Shown one piece after another: positions 26,173 through 43,900 of a stretch of DNA of 43,900 nt. A model generated the notes under the pieces. The model worked only from the letters and a program-made list of their open reading frames with translations, was not told the DNA's origin and searched no databases. Numbering within the stretch: the stretch's first letter is position 1; every line of letters begins with the position of its first letter. Origin of the DNA: Alphaproteobacteria bacterium (GTDB taxonomy: Bacteria > Pseudomonadota > Alphaproteobacteria > UBA6615); the NCBI GenBank assembly GCA_027297685.1, contig JAPUHN010000228.1, positions 1-43,900 on the forward strand, given 5' to 3'. The translations under genes were made by a program, and so were the position numbers.

Positions 26173-27309
26173 ATGCGCCGGCGCTACTTGCGATACAATT
26201 CCGCTAAGGAGTACGGTGCCGGCGTGCCCACGCCCTCTTGGTTCGGCGGCGGAAACGAATTTTGGGACAATACTCTAGTGCCAAAGACCGGTGTCCATAG
26301 CTTTATTGCTGCGGCTGCATTTTACTTACTGGCCCTGTTATCGGCCCTTCCGGCAGCGCTGGCGGCCGATTCCGCGATCATCTTGATGTACCACCGGTTC
26401 GGCGAAAGCGCGCACCCGGCAACCAACATTCGTGTCGACCAGTTCGAGGCCCATCTCGAAGAACTCCAGACGGGCGGATACACCGTCCTACCGATCCCCG
26501 ATATTCTGGCCGCTATACAGTCCGGCCGACCGCTTCCCGAACGCACCGTAGGCATCACAATCGACGACGCATACTTATCGGTTTACACCGAGGCGTGGCC
26601 GCGCCTGCGCCGTGCCGGGTTCCCGTTCACGCTGTTCGTCGCGACGGATGCGATCGACCGAAAATTCGCCAGCTATATGAGCTGGGATCAAATCCGTGAC
26701 CTACGCGACAATGGCGTGACCATCGGCAGCCAAACGGCGTCTCATTTGCATATGCCGGCGAACCGCGAGGTGCGCAACAAAGAGGATCTTCGGCTGTCGA
26801 ACGCGCGCTTCAAGCGCGAACTTGGGGAAACACCACCTCTATTCGCCTACCCGTTCGGTGAAGCTAGCACACGCATCCAGGAGATCGTTAAGGAAGCAGG
26901 CTTCACCCACGCGTTCGGCCAACATTCCGGGGCGCTGCATACTTCTTCGGATCGCTATTACATGCCGCGTTTCGCCCTCAACGAAAATTTCGGCGACACG
27001 CGGAGGTTCAAGCTGGTGGCGAATGCGCTACCGGTGCCGCATACCGATCTGTCGCCGCTCAATCCGACATTGACGAAAAACCCGCCACTGTTCGGCTTCA
27101 CATTGAGCGAGGAAGCTGGACCGCTGCGGGGCCTGACGTGCTATGCCGGCGATCAGGGGAAACTGCGAATGGAGCGGCTGGGCCGGCGTGTCGAAGTGCG
27201 TCTGGCCCGTAACTTCTCCGCCGGGCGCGCGCGCATCAATTGTACTGCGCCGGGACCCGACGGCAGGTGGCGCTGGCTCGGCATGCTTTATTATGTGCCG
27301 AAATTGTGA
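26173..27309 (+). CDS. secreted/membrane-anchored polysaccharide deacetylase (NodB/PgaB-like)
   Basis: Hydrophobic signal/anchor FIAAAAFYLLALLSALPAALA, then MYHRF...ITIDDAY...TLFV...SHLHM deacetylase motifs. The ATG lies 3 nt after the upstream stop. An internal GTG (VPKTG...) would give a more classical signal peptide. Confidence 0.78.
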   Translation: MRRRYLRYNSAKEYGAGVPTPSWFGGGNEFWDNTLVPKTGVHSFIAAAAFYLLALLSALPAALAADSAIILMYHRFGESAHPATNIRVDQFEAHLEELQTGGYTVLPIPDILAAIQSGRPLPERTVGITIDDAYLSVYTEAWPRLRRAGFPFTLFVATDAIDRKFASYMSWDQIRDLRDNGVTIGSQTASHLHMPANREVRNKEDLRLSNARFKRELGETPPLFAYPFGEASTRIQEIVKEAGFTHAFGQHSGALHTSSDRYYMPRFALNENFGDTRRFKLVANALPVPHTDLSPLNPTLTKNPPLFGFTLSEEAGPLRGLTCYAGDQGKLRMERLGRRVEVRLARNFSAGRARINCTAPGPDGRWRWLGMLYYVPKL

Positions 27310-29274: not shown

Positions 29275-30531
29275 ATGGTGGGCGTCGGCGCCGTCGAGCC
29301 TATCATGACAATTACCTCCGACGTATCCGAACAAATGCGCCCCTTGGCTGCTGGCTCCGGTGACGATTGCGAGGTCTTCGACTGGGTCGAAAACTTCGGC
29401 CGCTACGTCGATGGCATTGCCAGTTTAGTTACCGAAGTGTGCAACCGTTTCGTCGCTTGCGATATGCCGCTCGAGCGGGTCAGCATCGTAATGCGAACGT
29501 TGCATCCGCAGATCTTCGTCAGCGGCTATATTTGGCACAGCGACGAAAAAGAACTCTCCATGTTTTCAGCCGATCATCATTCGCAATCGCGCGAATCGTT
29601 TCAAAATAGCCCAGTGCGATCGATCTTCGAGGGCTCGCCGGGATTGCGGCGGCGGCTCGCCGACCCCGATTGCCCGCGCGATTTTCCCATCCTGGTCGAC
29701 CTCGATAATGAGGGCGTAACCGATTATCTGATCCTACCGCTGCCGTTCAGCGACGGCCGCTCGTACTCCTGCTCGTGGGCGACGAAAGCACCCGGCGGTT
29801 TTACCGATAGGCAGGCGGACCGCATTAAAGCGATCATGCCGACCTTTTCCCTGGTGCTCGAAATTCTTGCCACCCGCGACATTTCACGCAATTTGATGGA
29901 CACCTACCTCGGCCACAAGACCGGCGAGCGAGTCCTCAGTGGCGAAATTTACCGTGGCGTCAACGAGACCATAGAGGCGGTGCTTTGGATTTCCGATCTG
30001 CGCCGCTTCACCGCAATGTCGGACGAGCTGGCACCGCCGGTGCTGCTCGGCATTCTCAACGATCATTTCGAGCGCATTGTCGGCGCCATCGAAAAGCATG
30101 ACGGCGAAGTGCTTAAATTTATCGGCGATTCGGTGTTGGCGATCTTTCCGAACGACGATTACGATGGCGCTACCGGGGCCGCTGAAGCCGCGATCGCTTC
30201 CGCGCGTGATGCTGTTGGTCAACTTGAAGAGCGCAATAACGAACGCCGCGAGAAAAATCTCCCTTCGCTGGGATACGGTATCGCCTTGCATATGGGCGAG
30301 GTGGTGTACGGCAATATCGGCGCGCCGCACCGGCTCGATTTTACGGTGATCGGACCTGCGGTAAACCATACTGCTCGCATCGAACAACTGTGCCGTACCA
30401 TGGACCGCCCGGTTCTGGTATCCGCCACGGTCGCGGAAGCCGCCAACGAGCCTGTGACATCGCTCGGCTTTCATGCCCTGCGTGGCGTTCGCGAACCGCA
30501 TGAAATTTTCACCCTGCCGGAATACGCATAA
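29275..30531 (+). CDS. class III adenylate cyclase with a ~210-aa unassigned N-terminal domain (paralogue 1)
   Basis: Cyclase homology domain: WISDLRRFT and KFIGDSVLAIF (metal Asp residues), LDFTVIGPAVNHTARIE (substrate Asp, transition-state Asn/Arg). The ATG at 29305 is an alternative start. Confidence 0.85.
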   Translation: MVGVGAVEPIMTITSDVSEQMRPLAAGSGDDCEVFDWVENFGRYVDGIASLVTEVCNRFVACDMPLERVSIVMRTLHPQIFVSGYIWHSDEKELSMFSADHHSQSRESFQNSPVRSIFEGSPGLRRRLADPDCPRDFPILVDLDNEGVTDYLILPLPFSDGRSYSCSWATKAPGGFTDRQADRIKAIMPTFSLVLEILATRDISRNLMDTYLGHKTGERVLSGEIYRGVNETIEAVLWISDLRRFTAMSDELAPPVLLGILNDHFERIVGAIEKHDGEVLKFIGDSVLAIFPNDDYDGATGAAEAAIASARDAVGQLEERNNERREKNLPSLGYGIALHMGEVVYGNIGAPHRLDFTVIGPAVNHTARIEQLCRTMDRPVLVSATVAEAANEPVTSLGFHALRGVREPHEIFTLPEYA

Positions 30532-30535
30532 TACC

Positions 30536-31711
30536 ATGAGCAAGGCGGCGCCGGTTATCCAATGGATGCTGAAGGAAGGCCGTTTTACCGGTCACCACAT
30601 GCGCGACTTCGGTGATCAATTGTGCGTGCGAATTGTCGACGCCGGCATTCCCATCACCCGCGCTTTTTGCGGCATCCACACTCTGCACCCGCTGGTTGCC
30701 GCGACGGCTTATGTTTGGAACCGCGACGAAGGCGCTGAACGGTTCACCGCGTCGTGGGAGCAGAGAGATTCCGAGGAATTCCGCAACAGTCCCCCTTATC
30801 ACGTAGGACAAACTGGTGAGCAGATCCGCCGGCGCCTCGATGTGCCTGACGAACAACTTGATTTTGAAATTCTGAAAGACTTCAAGCGCGAAGGCATGAC
30901 CGACTACTTCGCACTTCCCCTGGTATTTTCCGACGGTACCAACAACCCCATGACTTTCCAGACCGACTCGCCGGCGGGATTTCAAGAAGCCGACATTCGC
31001 GGCCTCACCGATATCGTCGAAATGATGGCGCCGATCGTCGAAACCGAATCGGCTTACCGTATTGCGCGCCAGGTTCTCCAGACTTATATCGGCCGCCGCA
31101 CCGGCTCCCGCGTTTTGTCGGGCGCCATCACGCGCGGCGAGGGCGAGACCATCGAGGCGGTCATCTGGTACTGCGATTTACGCGGCTTCACCGGTCTTAC
31201 CGACAGCCTTCCGAGCGACCAGCTGATAGCCCTTCTCAACGACTATTTTGAGATCATGGCCGGCGCCGTTACGGAAGTCGGTGGAGAAGTATTGAAATTC
31301 GTTGGCGACGCCATGCTGGCGATCTTCGCGTTGAGCGACGAGGAGGGCAACGACGCCGAGGCCTGTTGCGCCAAAGCGTTGACCGCCGCGCGCACCGCGC
31401 GCGAGCGCCTGGCCGCCCGCAACGCCGAGCGGCAGGCCGCCGGGATGGCGGTAATCGAATGCGGGCTGGCGCTACATTTAGGAGAGGTGCATTACGGCAA
31501 CATCGGTGCGCCGGACCGCCTCGACTTCACCGTTATCGGGCCGGCCGTCAACCATGCCGCACGTTTGGAGAAACTCGGTTCGCAACTCGGCCATTCCATT
31601 GTCGCGTCGGCCAGCGTTGCCGCCGCCGCACCGGGCAGCTGGTTCACGTTGGGCGCCCACGAACTGCGCGGAGTTGCAGAACCGCAAGAGATATTCGCGC
31701 CCTTGGACTAA
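30536..31711 (+). CDS. class III adenylate cyclase with the same N-terminal domain (paralogue 2)
   Basis: The ATG lies 4 nt after the paralogue 1 stop. WYCDLRGFT, KFVGDAMLAIF and LDFTVIGPAVNHAARLE. The N-terminal domain aligns with paralogue 1 (TLHP..., F(Q/R)NSP, RRRL, (V/M)TDY..LPL.FSDG). Confidence 0.85.
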   Translation: MSKAAPVIQWMLKEGRFTGHHMRDFGDQLCVRIVDAGIPITRAFCGIHTLHPLVAATAYVWNRDEGAERFTASWEQRDSEEFRNSPPYHVGQTGEQIRRRLDVPDEQLDFEILKDFKREGMTDYFALPLVFSDGTNNPMTFQTDSPAGFQEADIRGLTDIVEMMAPIVETESAYRIARQVLQTYIGRRTGSRVLSGAITRGEGETIEAVIWYCDLRGFTGLTDSLPSDQLIALLNDYFEIMAGAVTEVGGEVLKFVGDAMLAIFALSDEEGNDAEACCAKALTAARTARERLAARNAERQAAGMAVIECGLALHLGEVHYGNIGAPDRLDFTVIGPAVNHAARLEKLGSQLGHSIVASASVAAAAPGSWFTLGAHELRGVAEPQEIFAPLD

Positions 31712-37681: not shown

Positions 37682-39388
37682 CTAGCTGGCTTTGCGCTGC
37701 CGGACGACGCGTTCGGCGGGGAAAATCACCGACACGGTGGTCCCTGCTCCACTTTCGCTTTTGATTTCGAATGAACCGCCATGGAGCTCAACAAACGATT
37801 TAGTCAGAGGAATACCCAAACCGGTGCCCTCGTATTGGCGGGTGAGTTGATTTTCGATTTGGACGAACGGCATTAGCGCTTGGAGGATATCGTTTGGCGT
37901 CATGCCGATCCCGGTATCGGCGACCTCAACCATCATTCCCCCGCGGCCCTTGATAATCGCGCAGCGTAGCGTGACCCGGCCGCCCGGCGGCGTAAACTTG
38001 ACAGCGTTCGACATCAGGTTGAGCAAAATCTGCTTCACGCGGCGCTCATCTGCGCGCAGCAACGGTAGCGCGTCCGGAACCTCGACAAGCAGTTCGACCT
38101 CGCCCTTGTCGGCCTGCGTTTGGATGATACGGATCACCAATTCGATAACGCCTTCGACATTGCAATCGGTCTCATACAGCTCGATGTTTCCAGACTCAAG
38201 CTTGGAAACATCGAGGATATCATTGATCATGCCGAGCAGGTGGATGCCGCTTTCGTTAATGCCGCGCGCGTATTCGATGTAACGCGGGTCACCCATCGGG
38301 CCGAACATCTGTTTGCTCATCATCTCCGAGAACCCGTTGATCGCGTTGAGTGGGGTGCGGAGCTCGTGGCTCATGGTGGTGAGGAAGACGGACTTCGCCA
38401 GATTCGCTGCTTCGGCGCGCTCTTTGGCGTCCCTTGCATCTTCGAGCGCTTGGGTGAGCTGCAAATCGTGCTGGTCTTCGGTGTCCAGCATATTGTTGAG
38501 CAGATTTGCGACCTCGCCGATCTCGTCCTGACCAAGCGGTGGTGTACGGGCTTTAACCTCGCCCGCCCGACGCGCATCGATGGCGCGGCGAATTGCAGCG
38601 ATCGGCACCAGAACTTGGCGGTTCATGAGGATAAAGGCGATCACGAGAAGCACTAGGACAGCGGCAAGCAACGTCGATATGTGCTGCCAGACGGTGGTGA
38701 AGGAAGCCTGCCGCACACCTTCGTATTCGAACCGAAGCAGGATTATGCCGCGATAGTCACGCGTCGCAGTCCAGGTTGCACCCAGCTGCACTTGTTGGCG
38801 CGCTTGCTTTCCTGTTTCGGCGCTCGGGCGAGCCCCCTTGCCGGGCGTGGCCCGCATGGCCGTGCCGGATTTTTGCGTCATGCCCGGCATAGCTTTTCCG
38901 GTGGTTTCACCCGGCTTGGAGCCAGAGCCCGTTCCGTGACCCATCATCCCGCGCATGCTGGGCTCCAGGGGCAAGATCATGACCAGATCGCCGTTGACAT
39001 CCAAATGCTGGCCGAACTGTCCCGTCCGCAGGGACCTGAGCACATGCACGCGCAAGTGCTCCTCCGGCAAAATCTGGGCCCTCTGCCCGACATAGCCTTT
39101 GATGGATGACGCCAGAATCGAGGGCCGAATCCTGCTGACGACGATGATGGATTTGAGCTCGGGCCCGTCGCGGACAACTTTGTCAATCACGTGCTGCACC
39201 TGGGTAAATCCCGCGGCGACCATGGCGACGTGGTTTATGGCGCTGCCTAACAGACGACCCCGCTTCGCAAGTTGTTCCTCGAATTGACCGAGGGTGACCC
39301 TATAGGTGATCCACGAAGCAGCCGCGCCGACAAAAAGGCCGCCGAGAAGGAGCGAGACAAGCAGTTTGGTGCGGATCGACGAGCGCAT
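37682..39388 (-). CDS. membrane sensor histidine kinase (HK1): TM, periplasmic domain, TM, HAMP-like linker, HisKA, HATPase_c
   Basis: TM1 LLVSLLLGGLFVGAAASWI; TM2 LLAAVLVLLVIAFIL; H-box [15 protein letters not shown] (His ~341); N box NLMSNAVKFT; G1 DTGIGM; G2 GTGLGIPL. PleC/DivJ-like core. No receiver domain. Confidence 0.9.
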   Translation of the reverse strand: MRSSIRTKLLVSLLLGGLFVGAAASWITYRVTLGQFEEQLAKRGRLLGSAINHVAMVAAGFTQVQHVIDKVVRDGPELKSIIVVSRIRPSILASSIKGYVGQRAQILPEEHLRVHVLRSLRTGQFGQHLDVNGDLVMILPLEPSMRGMMGHGTGSGSKPGETTGKAMPGMTQKSGTAMRATPGKGARPSAETGKQARQQVQLGATWTATRDYRGIILLRFEYEGVRQASFTTVWQHISTLLAAVLVLLVIAFILMNRQVLVPIAAIRRAIDARRAGEVKARTPPLGQDEIGEVANLLNNMLDTEDQHDLQLTQALEDARDAKERAEAANLAKSVFLTTMSHELRTPLNAINGFSEMMSKQMFGPMGDPRYIEYARGINESGIHLLGMINDILDVSKLESGNIELYETDCNVEGVIELVIRIIQTQADKGEVELLVEVPDALPLLRADERRVKQILLNLMSNAVKFTPPGGRVTLRCAIIKGRGGMMVEVADTGIGMTPNDILQALMPFVQIENQLTRQYEGTGLGIPLTKSFVELHGGSFEIKSESGAGTTVSVIFPAERVVRQRKAS

Positions 39389-39691
39389 ATAGTAAACCTG
39401 GGATGGGAACTCAGAGGTCGGTGAGCGTAGATCGAATAATCTAGAACAAATTGCTTATAAAACCATAAGAACCGACTTAACCGATTCCAAACTTTCTCAT
39501 AAACAACGGGCCGCGCGCCGGCTTCAAAAAAAGCGCGTTCCCTTCAATCTGAGATCCGAGGCCTCGATCCCGTCCTCGGGCAATTACTGTGTGCTCAATC
39601 CCTCGATGGAACAGGTGTCTTTCAGGCGTCATTTGGGCCATGCCATCAATAGGATCAACGGCAAGGGCGCGCAGAGTGTCGGTCCGGCGCG

Positions 39692-39724
39692 CAAACAAAT
39701 AAACGATACTTCCCGATCGGAAGT
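39692..39724 (-). terminator. Weak terminator-like hairpin downstream of the HerA-like gene
   Basis: The minus strand reads ACTTCC-GATCG-GGAAGT followed by ATCGTTTATTTGTTTG. The stem is only 6 bp, so this is tentative. Confidence 0.3.
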
Positions 39725-39745
39725 CGAAATATTAGCAGGTAGCGC

Positions 39746-41356
39746 CTATTGTCCCTGATTTCGCCACCGTTCCACTACGGTTTCTATGAACTTCTCGTCT
39801 TTGACGTCTTCGGACCAGGCGCTCGAGAAGGCGGCGGTACCGCTTCGTGGCCTCTGATCTTCCGGAATCTCGTCGAAACAAATCCGCACCGGAACCGAAA
39901 CGCCCTCGCCAATGGCGATCGCCTCTGCATTACCAAGCGAGGGAAGCACGTCAAGCAACCGGAACGCAGAATCTGCAAGCATCGCTTGCACGAATGCTTG
40001 ATCATTCTGGTTGCTCATGCGCATCGCGAATATTGTGTTGCATTGTGAGAGAACTTCCGGTGCTAACTCGGAAGGCCGCTGGCTGACAACGCACAGGGAA
40101 ACACCGTACTTGCGGCCTTCCCTTGCAATCCGCGATAACGCCAGCTTGGCGGGCTCGAAGCCGCGGTTCACTTCCCGCGGAGCGTAACGGTGAGCTTCTT
40201 CGCAGACCAGCGTGACAGGCATAGCCCGTTCGTTCCAAAGCGAAAATTCAAAGGTCATGCGGCACAAAACAGAGATCACGATGTTAAGTATCTCTGACGG
40301 AACACCGGACAAATCGAGGATCGTTATTGGCTTGCCGGCGACCGGCACCCGGAAAAACTGCGAGAGGATCGCAACCATATTGTCGCGCACGCCGATGCCG
40401 GGGAACATGAACCCGAAGCGCGAATCAATTCGAATAGTCTCGATCAGCGCCTTGAGCCGGAGGTAGGGGGTGCTCTTGAGCGTCTTATCTAATCGGCCAA
40501 CCTCCTCGTCAATCAGACGTGTAACGTCGCTTAGCCGGTAGGGTACCGGCATATCCGGCGTAACCCGCTCGCGTAACTTCGAGTCGCTGAGCATTATCTT
40601 TTTCGCGGCAACGATCACATCCGAGAAAATAGCGGCCATCGACCCGCGGTCGTTGTTCTCGCCGCCGAGCACGATCTCCTCGAATTCCGCGAAGGTGAGC
40701 AGCCAGTATGGCAGCTTTAGGGTAGTTGTATCGAGATTTTCTGCTATGTCACTGAACGCAGACGCGTATTCGCTGTGCATGTCGAGCAGCAGAATGTGTC
40801 CGTGCGTGAAGCGGTTGAGAATGGCGCGCAGGATAGTTACCACCGCGCACGATTTGCCGCAGCCCGTAGCGCCAAGGATTGCGAAATGCTTGCCGAGCAA
40901 ATCGTCGGTCACAACACAGGCGGCCAGATTTCGATCTTGGTGGACGGAGCCCACGCGTACGCTGGTCAGTGGTGTGGTAGCGTAAACTAAACTTAGATCT
41001 GTTTGGTTAGTGGGGACGACTTCATCGCCCAACGATGGCATGACCGAGACACCCCGGCAAAAATCCGAGAGCTTTTGTTCTCCATTGATGTGGCACTCGC
41101 CGAGCAGCTCGACTTCGGCCAATCCATACTCCGAGGTGGAATTGTCGTGTGCCGGGACCGGGATACTGAGGCCGCCGACAATACCAAACACCACGAAGCC
41201 CGACACATTGACTTTGACCAGCGCGCCAATTTGCAGCTTCTGCTGAGCTTCGTTTGCCCCGGCGGATCCTCCGTGGAGAAGCACGACGACCTGCGCGCCT
41301 GAAACAGCCACGATACGGCCAATATTGACATCCTGAGTTGCTACCGAACCCTCCAT
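39746..41356 (-). CDS. HerA/FtsK-superfamily (DUF87-type) hexameric ATPase
   Basis: N-terminal barrel-like segment IGRIVAVSGAQVVVLL...GALVKVNV (HAS-barrel-like). Walker A HFAILGATGCGKS, LLLDMHSEY, Walker B VTLVCEEAHRYAP, and VVSQRPSEL. The ATG at 41356 has AGGAGG exactly 6 nt upstream; the track start at 41386 has no such support. Confidence 0.85.
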   Translation of the reverse strand: MEGSVATQDVNIGRIVAVSGAQVVVLLHGGSAGANEAQQKLQIGALVKVNVSGFVVFGIVGGLSIPVPAHDNSTSEYGLAEVELLGECHINGEQKLSDFCRGVSVMPSLGDEVVPTNQTDLSLVYATTPLTSVRVGSVHQDRNLAACVVTDDLLGKHFAILGATGCGKSCAVVTILRAILNRFTHGHILLLDMHSEYASAFSDIAENLDTTTLKLPYWLLTFAEFEEIVLGGENNDRGSMAAIFSDVIVAAKKIMLSDSKLRERVTPDMPVPYRLSDVTRLIDEEVGRLDKTLKSTPYLRLKALIETIRIDSRFGFMFPGIGVRDNMVAILSQFFRVPVAGKPITILDLSGVPSEILNIVISVLCRMTFEFSLWNERAMPVTLVCEEAHRYAPREVNRGFEPAKLALSRIAREGRKYGVSLCVVSQRPSELAPEVLSQCNTIFAMRMSNQNDQAFVQAMLADSAFRLLDVLPSLGNAEAIAIGEGVSVPVRICFDEIPEDQRPRSGTAAFSSAWSEDVKDEKFIETVVERWRNQGQ

Positions 41357-41425
41357 CACCGACCTCCTGTGGCCGCTTCGTTGCATTGCGGACGGCCCGC
41401 CACCACGCGGGTGCGGCGTTGCGAT

Positions 41426-42403
41426 CTAGCTTGCATTTGAATTGGCCGATCCTGTTGATATCGTTTTGTTCTTCGTCGGTCCTTCGCTCGTCGCGTGCAC
41501 ACTCGGCAGGTTTCTTTCCTGCTCCTTTGCGTAAACCCGCTCGCTCGGAAATCTCAACGTAACCGTTGTGCCTACGTCAATCTGGCTCTCGATTTCAAGC
41601 GTGCCGCCATGCAGTTCGACCAAACGTCTCGCAAGGGGCAAACCAAGGCCTGTCCCTTCGTACTGGCGAGCAAGACCTGTATCGATCTGGATGAATGGCG
41701 TCAGCACCTTGGAAATGTTGTCGGCGGCGATGCCAATTCCCGTATCGGACACGCGAACCACCATGTAGCCAGACTCCTCGACAACGGCTGCTATACGAAC
41801 CCTGCCGTCCGCAGGCGTAAACTTTACGGCATTGGAAAGCAGATTAATGAATATCTGCTTTAGCTTGACCGCATCGCCGCGAAGTCTGAGGGGGGCAGCC
41901 GGAATATTAACTTCGAGCGTCAATCGCGCGTTGGCTGCGCGTTCCTTGATGATCGTCAGGCAGCTCCGAATCGCTGCGCTTACATCGATCAGATCGTCGC
42001 GTAATTCGAGTTTGCCGGCTTCGATCTTGGCGAGGTCGAGTATATCGTTTATGAGGTCGAGCAAGTGTTGGCCCGAGTTCAAAACGTCTCGTGTGTATTC
42101 GGTGTACCGATCGTTGCCGATGGGTCCGTGTATTCCCGTCAACATCGCATCGGTGAAGCCGATGATTGCATTAAGCGGCGTTCGCAATTCATGACTGATG
42201 TTGGCGAGAAAATCGCTTTTGGCGCGATTTGCCGTCTCCGCCTCAATTTTTGCTGAATTCGCCGTGTCCACAAGCATTCGCTGTTGTTGCAGGGCTAACA
42301 GCGCAAAATCAGCACGCCGGTGGCCGGAAAGCTGTTTTAGCTGGCTGCTGTACTTGTCGAGAATGGAGTGTCGCCGCCCTTTGGAAGAGGATTGGCCGGC
42401 CAT
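41426..42403 (-). CDS. soluble histidine kinase without an input domain (HK2)
   Basis: 325 aa. About 70 aa of helical, coiled-coil-like sequence leads straight into the H-box [15 protein letters not shown] (His ~71), then [16 protein letters not shown] and GTGLGLPL. No TM segment and no receiver domain. Confidence 0.9.
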
Positions 42404-42680: not shown

Positions 42681-42858
42681 GGCGCGATGTGTTGCGCGAT
42701 CCATACTTGCCAAAATATGATGGAAGCGCGATTCCGCTCGCATCGCCGGCCCCCCGTGCGCGCTAAAACCCGTGCGGCAGTTGGGCCCAGTTGTAGCTAG
42801 GCGACGTATTTCGATCACATGTTTTGCCGCATGGCTGCGGGCTCGTATGAAGGGAGAT

Positions 42859-42904
42859 GGCTTCGCCGATTGTATAAGAGGCTTGGCTGCGGTCGGGCGA
42901 AGCC
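42859..42904 (+). other. Leader stem-loop just upstream of the beta-propeller gene SD
   Basis: GGCTTCGCC (42859..42867) and GGCGAAGCC (42896..42904) form a perfect 9-bp stem around a 28-nt loop. The stem ends 11 nt before the GGAGG SD. Confidence 0.35.
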
Positions 42905-42926
42905 GCCAGAGCAATGGAGGACCAAT

Positions 42927-43900
42927 ATGCTAAACAAAGCTATCTTTTGCTTGGCCTTGGTGTTCGCCGGAACACAGTCGATAGTCCCGGCCCGGGCTGA
43001 AATCCTAGCCATGGTCAACTATTCGTCCAAGAGTGGGCAGTCGGTGCAAAAAGAAGGCATCGCCATCCTCGATGTCGATCCGAAGTCTGCGAACTACGGT
43101 AAGATCCTTACTGACATCCCACTGCCTAAGGGGCTGAAAAACCACCATATCTTCTACAACAAGGACAACAGCAAGGGGTACATGACAGTGTTTGGCGAGA
43201 ACGCCCTCTACGTTCTCGATCTGAAGACAAAACCTTTCCGCCTGAGCAAGGTGTCGATACCCGATTGCGCGGTTGGTGAGGACGTCGTGTTCTCGGACGA
43301 CAACAGCCGCTGGTACGTAACCTGCATGGGCAGCAGTGTGGTTATCGTCGGCGACGCCGTGAGCGACAAGCCGATCAAGACGATCAAGGCGTCGAAGCCG
43401 TATCCGCACGGCATCGCCATCAACGAAAGTATCAATAGGATACTGATCACAGGAACCATCAAGCACGACCTCACCGAGCCGGGCGAGACTATTACCGCCA
43501 TCGAGGCCAGTACCGGAAAGGTACTGGAGAGCTACAAGGTCTCGAAAAAGCCGTCTCCTGCGGGCGCTGCGCCGGTAGAAATACTATTCGTGCCCGGCTC
43601 CAATCCCCCGGTCGCCTACGTCACCAACATGTTCGGCGGCACCCTGTGGGCGGCGACATGGATTCCCGCGACAAAGACCTTCACCGTGCAGGAAGTTTAC
43701 GACTTCGCATCGATCAAGGCTGGCGTACCGCTCGAAATCTATTTCAACAGGAAGGTCGACCGGCTCTACGTGACCACCGCAAACCCCGGCAAGTTTCACA
43801 TCTTCGACATCAGCGCCGGGCCGCTAAAACCCAAGCTCCTGAAGACCATCGACGGGGCAGCGGGCGCGCACCACGTCGGCATCACGCCGGACGAGAAGCT
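42927..43900 (+). CDS. secreted beta-propeller protein, distantly SBP56 (selenium-binding protein / methanethiol oxidase)-like; 3' end lies outside the window
   Basis: Missing from the supplied ORF track because it runs off the right edge. GGAGG (42916..42920), 6 nt, ATG. Signal peptide MLNKAIFCLALVFAGTQSIVPARA. The frame stays open for 324 codons to the window end. Motifs ILDVDPKSANYGKI...LP...NHH and DRLYVTTANPGKFHIFDISAGPLKPKL resemble SBP56-family motifs recalled from memory. Confidence 0.7.
   Translation, partial: MLNKAIFCLALVFAGTQSIVPARAEILAMVNYSSKSGQSVQKEGIAILDVDPKSANYGKILTDIPLPKGLKNHHIFYNKDNSKGYMTVFGENALYVLDLKTKPFRLSKVSIPDCAVGEDVVFSDDNSRWYVTCMGSSVVIVGDAVSDKPIKTIKASKPYPHGIAINESINRILITGTIKHDLTEPGETITAIEASTGKVLESYKVSKKPSPAGAAPVEILFVPGSNPPVAYVTNMFGGTLWAATWIPATKTFTVQEVYDFASIKAGVPLEIYFNRKVDRLYVTTANPGKFHIFDISAGPLKPKLLKTIDGAAGAHHVGITPDEK

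Follow-up and report, generated by a model that had tools for sequence, protein, structure and literature searches.

A sensor-less histidine kinase and a HerA-type ATPase encoded as a conserved gene pair in Alphaproteobacteria, with a proposed role of the ATPase as signal input

Sensor-less histidine kinases and GGDEF-EAL enzymes are common, and their control is mostly not understood. In the 'flux sensing' system BceAB-BceS, an input-less histidine kinase uses an adjacently encoded ATP-driven machine as its sensor. The only role known to us for HerA ATPases beyond archaeal DNA repair is that of platforms for suicidal anti-phage effectors. In the DUF4297-HerA system, the effector gene immediately precedes that of HerA; the effector binds the ring of HAS domains, and assembly is needed for function; a C-terminal hook of HerA puts bulky residues into the neighbouring subunit (PMC11291478). 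Sir2 is allosterically activated on binding to HerA (PMC11514289). Here, a stretch of 43 900 nucleotides (nt) of alphaproteobacterial DNA (contig JAPUHN010000228.1; 'the window' below) was analysed. An earlier note on this DNA had described in it a sensor-less histidine kinase (HK2), a HerA-type ATPase and a membrane-bound histidine kinase (HK1), and had proposed that the ATPase may act as the input for HK2. The HK2 and HerA genes were found to be a conserved pair in several orders of Alphaproteobacteria. The short N-terminal module of HK2 recurs on GGDEF-EAL proteins encoded near other HerA genes. The pair and its functional elements are placed as follows.

41426..42403, minus strand: HK2, 325 amino acids (aa), cytoplasmic HisKA-type histidine kinase without a sensor domain (open reading frame (ORF) call and Pfam)
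42218..42403, minus strand: N-terminal module of HK2, aa 1-62; basic tail, motif, and coiled-coil helix running into DHp helix 1
42338-42367, minus strand: ten-residue module motif of HK2, residues 13-22
42191..42193, minus strand: codon of His71, the phospho-acceptor in the H-box HELRTP, 53 residues past the motif Tyr18 (translation)
41357..41425, minus strand: HK2-HerA spacer, 69 nt, with a Shine-Dalgarno sequence AGGAGG at 41363-41368
39746..41356, minus strand: HerA-type ATPase (FtsK-HerA superfamily, DUF87), 536 aa; the longer open frame is 39746..41386
about 40982-41323, minus strand: putative HAS-barrel region of HerA
40850-40873, 40190-40210 and 40070-40084, minus strand: HerA Walker A GATGCGKS, Walker B LVCEEAH and SQRPS, respectively (translation)
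39749-39844, minus strand: conserved C-terminal tail of HerA

The start of HerA was set at the second ATG, at 41356, because an AGGAGG lies 6 nt before this ATG and because the 95%-identical homologue P0001 is likewise 536 aa long; the spacer is therefore 69 nt. No terminator-like site was found in this spacer by pattern scan.

Orthologous loci were scanned with one genome per species. Eighty loci were returned, from Hyphomicrobiales, Stellaceae, Dongiaceae, Kiloniellales, Geminicoccaceae, Acetobacteraceae and others. The HerA ORF was recovered in 76 of the 80; three of these were at a contig edge, which left 73 informative loci. A HK2-like kinase of 282-383 aa was encoded directly upstream of HerA and on the same strand in 52/73 of them, and a short kinase stood in that place at every metagenomic locus looked up, as the earlier note had envisaged. 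The gap between the two genes in orthologous pairs had a median of 12 nt, and a 4-nt overlap of the reading frames was common. Across 82 HerA loci, the kinase was the sole conserved neighbour family, and no NurA-, Sir2- or DUF4297-like gene recurred among the conserved neighbours or was fused to HerA. Partners of these canonical kinds were seen solely with plasmid HerAs about 30% identical to that of the window, which are encoded behind SIR2 or DUF4297 genes in defence-type contexts. The plasmid matches were for the most part such distant HerAs of the anti-phage kind.

The pair was also recovered from other starting points. Three HerA homologues on contigs with unlike surroundings each had a HisKA/HATPase_c protein of about 300 aa directly upstream on the same strand. 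When the look-up was reversed and began with three short kinases encoded on long contigs, a HerA gene lay immediately downstream in all three cases. The surroundings of the pair vary and are mostly housekeeping or metabolic (glnD; lon-hupB and nuo; F420 cof genes; MaoC and others). In a neighbour-joining tree of HerA, loci grouped by family and the type of partner was clade-specific: the kinase in Hyphomicrobiales, Stellaceae, Dongiaceae and the clade of the window, GGDEF-EAL proteins in several Rhodospirillales-type lineages, and no adjacent partner seen in a Kiloniellales/Rhodospirillales clade. HK2 and HerA are best explained, from this comparison of genes, as one functional two-gene unit that would have been inherited vertically in several orders of Alphaproteobacteria.

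Several loci of the scan had particular features. In loci L005 and L006 (11955-17596), a cluster of IS110- and IS3-family transposases lies downstream of the kinase-HerA pair; this was the sole mobile-element context among the loci examined. HerA of the alphaproteobacterial type was also found in L018 (JBNOAI010000012.1, labelled Leptospira interrogans), in L053 (a Thiohalocapsa metagenome-assembled genome) and in L079 (a Desulfovibrionaceae metagenome-assembled genome). The upstream kinase is present in L018 and L053, and L018 clusters with Hyphomicrobiaceae-type loci in the HerA tree. These three are probably contaminated or mis-binned contigs.

The N-terminal module of HK2 consists of about ten mostly basic residues, the motif [ST]-L-[LM]-x-x-[YF]-x-x-Q-[LF]-G-x-[IV]-[VL]-[ED]-R (in short form S-L-L-x-R-Y-x-x-Q-L-G) and a long helix ending in the H box, in all about 60 aa. 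It is kept in all the short kinases encoded upstream of HerA, and no Pfam family covers it in HK2. At HerA loci without a kinase, a hidden Markov model of the module found neighbouring GGDEF-EAL or PAS-GGDEF-EAL proteins that carry the same module at their N-terminus. Relative to HerA, their genes lie upstream and overlap it by 4 nt (L081), lie downstream (L052), or are convergent (L014, L024) or divergent (L084). All the module-bearing GGDEF-EAL proteins keep the GGDEF, EAL and DDFGTG motifs.

The association of the module with HerA was found again by a search independent of genome position. A profile of the module alone (54 columns) was searched against 1.84 billion representative proteins, and 126 proteins passed. 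Nine of them were mid-protein coiled-coil matches and 117 were N-terminal matches. By motif patterns, the latter were mostly HisKA kinases or fragments, together with 9-15 (PAS-)GGDEF(-EAL) proteins; a Pfam scan of ten profile matches agreed with these classes. Three of the GGDEF(-EAL) matches (P0335, P0341 and P0332) were placed in their genomes, and each adjoins a DUF87 gene (3/3), in divergent, convergent and co-directional orientation.

A different arrangement was seen on Nitratireductor plasmids (L097:4929-8200 and L098:3818-7168). There, a GGDEF-EAL gene lies 3-5 nt past a diverged HerA gene (39% identity, shortened N-terminus), and its product has degenerate active-site motifs and no N-terminal module. 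This arrangement may be a second form, independent or decayed, of a coupling between HerA and cyclic di-GMP (c-di-GMP).

The distance from the motif Tyr to the phospho-accepting His falls into a few classes:
54 residues: 120 sequences
47 residues: 9 sequences
40 residues: 44 sequences
53 residues: 15 sequences, including HK2

The main classes of 54, 47 and 40 residues are separated by exact heptads. In the module-bearing GGDEF proteins, the cyclase domain starts (at DxLTGLxNR) 66 residues after the motif Tyr in nine sequences and 59 residues after it in one. Such heptad-quantised linkers are what is expected of a register-sensitive signalling coiled coil, and they argue, at the level of sequence, against a passive tether.

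HK2 matches HisKA (2e-20) and HATPase_c (6e-28) in Pfam and no further domain. By translation, the H-box HELRTP is at residue 71, a ten-residue N box at 187, the G1 box DTGIGI at 220 and the G2 box GTGLGL at 250. In an AlphaFold2 model built from a 36-sequence alignment (predicted local distance difference test (pLDDT) 82), residues 14-88 form a single unbroken helix that contains His71. It is followed by DHp helix 2 and then by the CA domain, and a globular sensor is absent. The description of HK2 as a helix that goes straight into the H-box was borne out by this model.

The kinase core was compared with models of cell-cycle kinases. On the DivJ and PdhS models, the DHp-CA core of HK2 and HK1 reached 206-216 bits. 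The values for HK2 were 210 bits with DivJ (cut-off 1000) and 206 bits with PdhS (cut-off 2000), with the alignment confined to the catalytic core, and models of hybrid kinases (HrmK, TorS) scored HK2 as high or higher. One source labels one orthologue 'PleC'. Assignment of HK2 to the PleC/DivJ/PdhS kinases was not supported, the scores on the DivJ and PdhS equivalog models being far below their cut-offs. Control of the HK2-HerA operon by the cell-cycle regulator CtrA was considered and rejected: no CtrA box (TTAA-N7-TTAA) was found in the window or upstream of 53 orthologous kinases, and GANTC sites were unremarkable. A cell-cycle link of HK2, whose core resembles PleC, DivJ and PdhS and equally resembles hybrid kinases, is only a possibility.

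The ATPase matches DUF87 (PF01935) in Pfam at 1e-31 and the PADLOC HerA model PDLC04105 over its full length (391 bits). It scores 276 bits on the NCBIfam model HerA_antiphage_2 (NF042944; cut-off 850), 153 bits on NF042943 (cut-off 800) and, in the comparison with HerA-NurA, 125 bits on NF040819 (cut-off 970). Among structures, HerA chains 9c1m, 8wiv, 8xau, 8ziq and 8j4u were matched with E-values from 1e-64 to 1e-34, and archaeal HerA (4d2i) with an E-value of about 1e-20. As judged from these scores, the closest characterised relatives of the ATPase are anti-phage HerAs. Homologues at 55-60% identity number in the thousands; the few that are named by source come from alphaproteobacterial metagenome-assembled genomes. 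Identity of HerA across orders is 45-60%.

In 22 orthologues, GATGCGKS, LVCEEAH and the arginine-finger motif SQRPS are invariant, the N-terminal region is strongly conserved, and the protein ends in an invariant aromatic tail, SGTAxFSxAW...RW. This tail is consistent with the C-terminal hook described for HerA (PMC11291478). An AlphaFold2 monomer model from the 22-sequence alignment reached a pLDDT of 52 overall and places beta-strands at residues 23-160, where the local pLDDT is about 80. The Pfam HAS-barrel family gave a weak match with the Sinorhizobium meliloti orthologue only. No receiver or HPt domain was found in HerA with Pfam or NCBIfam.

HerA orthologues of Hyphomicrobiales (L015, L019, L029, L034-L038, L044, L046, L088 and others; L095:4716-6752) carry a C-terminal extension of about 100-170 aa, for a total of 640-740 aa. 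In the S. meliloti orthologue, the extension looks disordered and matches no Pfam family. The Hyphomicrobiales clade with the extended HerA also has the shortest kinase linker (40 residues). The S. meliloti gene (L095; CP090106.1 2374698-2376734) encodes a 678-aa DUF87 protein between ilvIH and miaA, with no kinase or c-di-GMP enzyme adjacent. The record is 3.7 Mb long and labelled pSymB, yet core housekeeping genes (ilvIH, miaA, serB) surround the match.

From these observations, the following mechanism is proposed. The HerA hexamer would be the input device, on which the HK2 dimer would dock via its N-terminal module, i.e. the basic tail and the S-L-L-x-R-Y-x-x-Q-L-G helix. Judging by Sir2 and DUF4297 in the anti-phage HerA systems, the docking site would probably be the ring of HAS-barrel domains. 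Conformational changes of the ring that depend on nucleotide and substrate would pass along the continuous coiled coil, in fixed register, into the DHp helix, and the substrate would most likely be double-stranded DNA, as is the case for other HerAs. In this way, the balance between kinase and phosphatase activity of HK2 towards an unlinked response regulator would be set. In lineages with a bifunctional GGDEF-EAL enzyme (cyclase/diesterase), that enzyme would be driven through the same module and coiled coil, with c-di-GMP as the output. An input role is assigned to the module because an element common to two unrelated output enzymes sits N-terminal, ahead of a coiled coil that conserves register; HerA is proposed as the input partner because the module co-occurs with HerA alone. 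The input role first suggested for the ATPase thereby gained comparative support, from the module common to kinases and GGDEF-EAL proteins and from the heptad linkers. On this comparative evidence, it is judged reasonably probable that HerA serves as docking partner and input and that the output is the kinase or the c-di-GMP enzyme.

Several points weigh against this reading. Sixteen of the 73 informative loci have no module-bearing partner within 6 kb, and the HerA orthologues of S. meliloti and Sphingomonas stand alone; adjacency is therefore not obligatory. The contact proposed between the HerA and HK2 proteins is drawn from gene comparison, and the HerA monomer model is poor (pLDDT 52). 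No receiver gene is linked to the pair: no receiver-domain ORF was found by jackhmmer in the 43.9-kb window, and a receiver gene lies within 6 kb of HerA in just 5/86 loci. In the clade of the window, HK2 and the 14 kinases closest to it have a linker of 53 residues, which falls one residue short of the heptad series; this shift of register could mean an altered or inverted polarity of signalling. Finally, the hybrid kinase P0267 matched the module profile with no HerA nearby. Only its coiled-coil part is aligned, and it was treated as a false positive.

Other explanations of the pair were weighed against the same evidence. Chance or lineage-specific adjacency of unrelated genes is a fair description of the position of HK1 (see below). 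For HK2 and HerA it is effectively refuted, by the 52/73 loci across several orders with overlapping reading frames, by the independent recovery of the association between module and HerA, and by the reverse look-ups from kinases. The pair could instead be an anti-phage or anti-plasmid system of HerA plus effector with the same wiring, in which HerA detects invading DNA and the signalling enzyme triggers dormancy or another response. The nearest characterised relatives of the ATPase (PADLOC, 391 bits; HerA_antiphage_2, 276 bits; PDB 9c1m, 8wiv, 8xau and 8j4u) point that way, as do the order of partner then HerA, the same as in SIR2-HerA and DUF4297-HerA, and a genomic position that differs between lineages. 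However, the HerA tree tracks taxonomy with clade-specific partners, identity is 45-60% across orders, and the pair lies among housekeeping or metabolic genes, not in defence islands or among mobile elements, except for the insertion sequence copies in L005 and L006. The NCBIfam anti-phage equivalog cut-off is also widely missed (276 versus 850), and the canonical partners occur only with HerAs at about 30% identity. A defence function is considered unlikely on this balance.

The wiring could also run the other way, with HerA as the regulated output of a kinase or GGDEF-EAL enzyme that takes in its signal by another route and controls the translocase, for example by phosphorylation or local c-di-GMP. 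Tight operon linkage fits this equally well, and c-di-GMP is known to regulate several ATPases. Such control is nevertheless quite unlikely: HK2 has no sensor domain with which to receive a signal, HerA has no receiver or HPt domain as phosphoryl acceptor, and it is improbable that a kinase and a nucleotide cyclase/diesterase would act alike on one target. Moreover, the element they share is N-terminal and ahead of the register-conserving coiled coil, which is the canonical position of an input and not of an output. If HerA were a scaffold only, it would localise or tether the signalling enzyme, for example at the nucleoid or the division site, and pass on no allosteric signal. The N-terminal module does resemble a docking peptide, and localisation factors commonly control kinases of the PleC/DivJ type. 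For a tether, any length should do, whereas the heptad-quantised linkers point to transmission that depends on register, and the catalytic motifs of the ATPase are invariant across orthologues; a purely scaffolding role is accordingly held to be quite unlikely. The proposal that HerA provides the input and the module-bearing enzyme the output is the preferred one. A broader picture is offered tentatively, as a possible extension about which some doubt is in order. It holds that a HerA ring translocase was recruited in Alphaproteobacteria as a cytoplasmic, ATP-driven sensor, most plausibly of the state or presence of double-stranded DNA, and was wired by a docking/coiled-coil module of about 60 aa to a phosphorelay or to c-di-GMP. 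Such a sensor would stand as a new class of signal input, related, in a housekeeping role, to the HerA-effector systems that act against phages.

The third gene of the group and the region downstream of HerA are placed as follows.

37682..39388, minus strand: HK1, 568 aa, histidine kinase with two transmembrane segments and a HAMP domain; a neighbour outside the conserved unit
39389-39745, minus strand: HerA-HK1 spacer, 357 nt
39708..39724, minus strand: weak terminator-like hairpin, 22 nt past the HerA stop codon (pattern scan)

HK1 matches HAMP, HisKA and HATPase_c in Pfam and has hydrophobic segments at aa 9-27 and 238-256. It shares 50% identity with HK2 across 247 aa of the catalytic core. 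Unlinked PAS-kinases in the database are closer to the HK2 core (55-58% identity), and HK1 is therefore, by sequence kinship, a member of the same kinase subfamily and no special tandem duplicate or dedicated paralogue. The 'clear paralogue' of the earlier note was right in the likeness of the cores and went too far in the closeness that it implied. HK1 had also been listed with the pair as one of three co-directional genes. It was found downstream of HerA solely in L001, a 95%-identical relative, and at no other locus; it was therefore rejected as a third component and is a lineage-specific neighbour.

The remaining particulars of that description held: ORF calls and translation confirmed three minus-strand genes, their lengths, the spacers of 69 and 357 nt, the AGGAGG sequence and the motifs, and jackhmmer and neighbour checks confirmed that the window contains no partner of the receiver, NurA, Sir2 or DUF4297 kind. 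The hairpin at 39708..39724 is a possible end of the HK2-HerA transcript. It is only a hint, as terminator-like matches in the region were at chance level (8 found, 7.4 expected); promoter matches were at chance level too. No small ORFs, RNAs or tRNAs were found in the spacers and the upstream region, and Rfam gave no matches there.

Downstream of the three genes, the window encodes glnD, murJ and trpS. Divergent from HK2, an open frame of at least 366 aa (42801-43898, plus strand) runs off the end of the window; it is rich in beta-propeller-like repeats and has a weak, sub-threshold match to SBP56 (selenium-binding / methanethiol-oxidase-like). Two tandem paralogues of about 415 aa with a slight overlap lie at 29275-30531 and 30473-31711 (both plus strand). 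In each, an N-terminal half without a Pfam match precedes a C-terminal class III adenylate/guanylate cyclase domain. ARAGORN called a tRNA-Tyr (anticodon ATA) at 26634-26711 (minus strand), inside a polysaccharide-deacetylase coding sequence (26173-27309); Rfam found no tRNA there, and the call is probably a false positive.

If the HerA ring does feed a phosphorelay and c-di-GMP signalling, it would represent a new class of input, in which a motor ATPase serves as sensor. A function would be given to a widely conserved alphaproteobacterial 'DUF87/ATP-binding protein', and a defence-type machine and a housekeeping signalling device would be tied in evolution. Two small soluble proteins and a short peptide motif would suffice for a direct test of the hypothesis. 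In the literature searched, whose coverage was incomplete, no description of a HerA coupled to a histidine kinase or a GGDEF-EAL protein was found, in line with the earlier note, which knew of no described module of a histidine kinase and HerA.

The pair combines two kinds of system that are already known, namely the two-gene system of HerA plus partner and the sensor-less signalling enzyme controlled by an accessory protein. SIR2-HerA and DUF4297-HerA are nearest to it: they contain the closest sequence relatives of the ATPase, and they too consist of two genes with the partner immediately upstream. Their partner is an NADase or a nuclease attached by a globular domain, whereas here it is a histidine kinase or a GGDEF-EAL protein, for which attachment via a short N-terminal helix module is proposed. 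The HK2-HerA unit also differs from them in its apparent vertical inheritance, in its housekeeping contexts and in not reaching the NCBIfam anti-phage cut-offs. The archaeal HerA-NurA end-resection machine also has an ATPase of the FtsK-HerA superfamily with a RecA-like core, and its hexameric state and HAS barrel are putative features of the ATPase here, but it is far more distant (E-value about 1e-20 for 4d2i), and no NurA nuclease is encoded in the window or at orthologous loci.

On the side of the kinase, HK2 and HK1 share with PleC, DivJ and PdhS a DHp-CA core that matches the DivJ and PdhS models. Their scores are far under the equivalog cut-offs (1000 and 2000), and the domains by which those kinases sense and are localised are missing here. 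A canonical two-component system differs in that no response regulator is encoded beside HK2. KaiC with SasA and CikA, to which the pair had been likened, offers a conceptual resemblance, that of a hexameric ATPase that sets a kinase lacking its own ligand sensor. The analogy goes no further: SasA docks via a KaiB-like thioredoxin-fold domain, whereas HK2 has no such domain and its N-terminus is a single helix, the ATPase is a DUF87 protein and not KaiC, and there is no clock context. With BceAB-BceS, the pair shares an input-less kinase encoded beside an ATP-driven machine. The machine there is a membrane ABC transporter (BceAB), and its intramembrane kinase BceS has a response regulator beside it, whereas HK2 and HerA are both cytoplasmic, the ATPase is a predicted HerA ring and the pair has no linked regulator.

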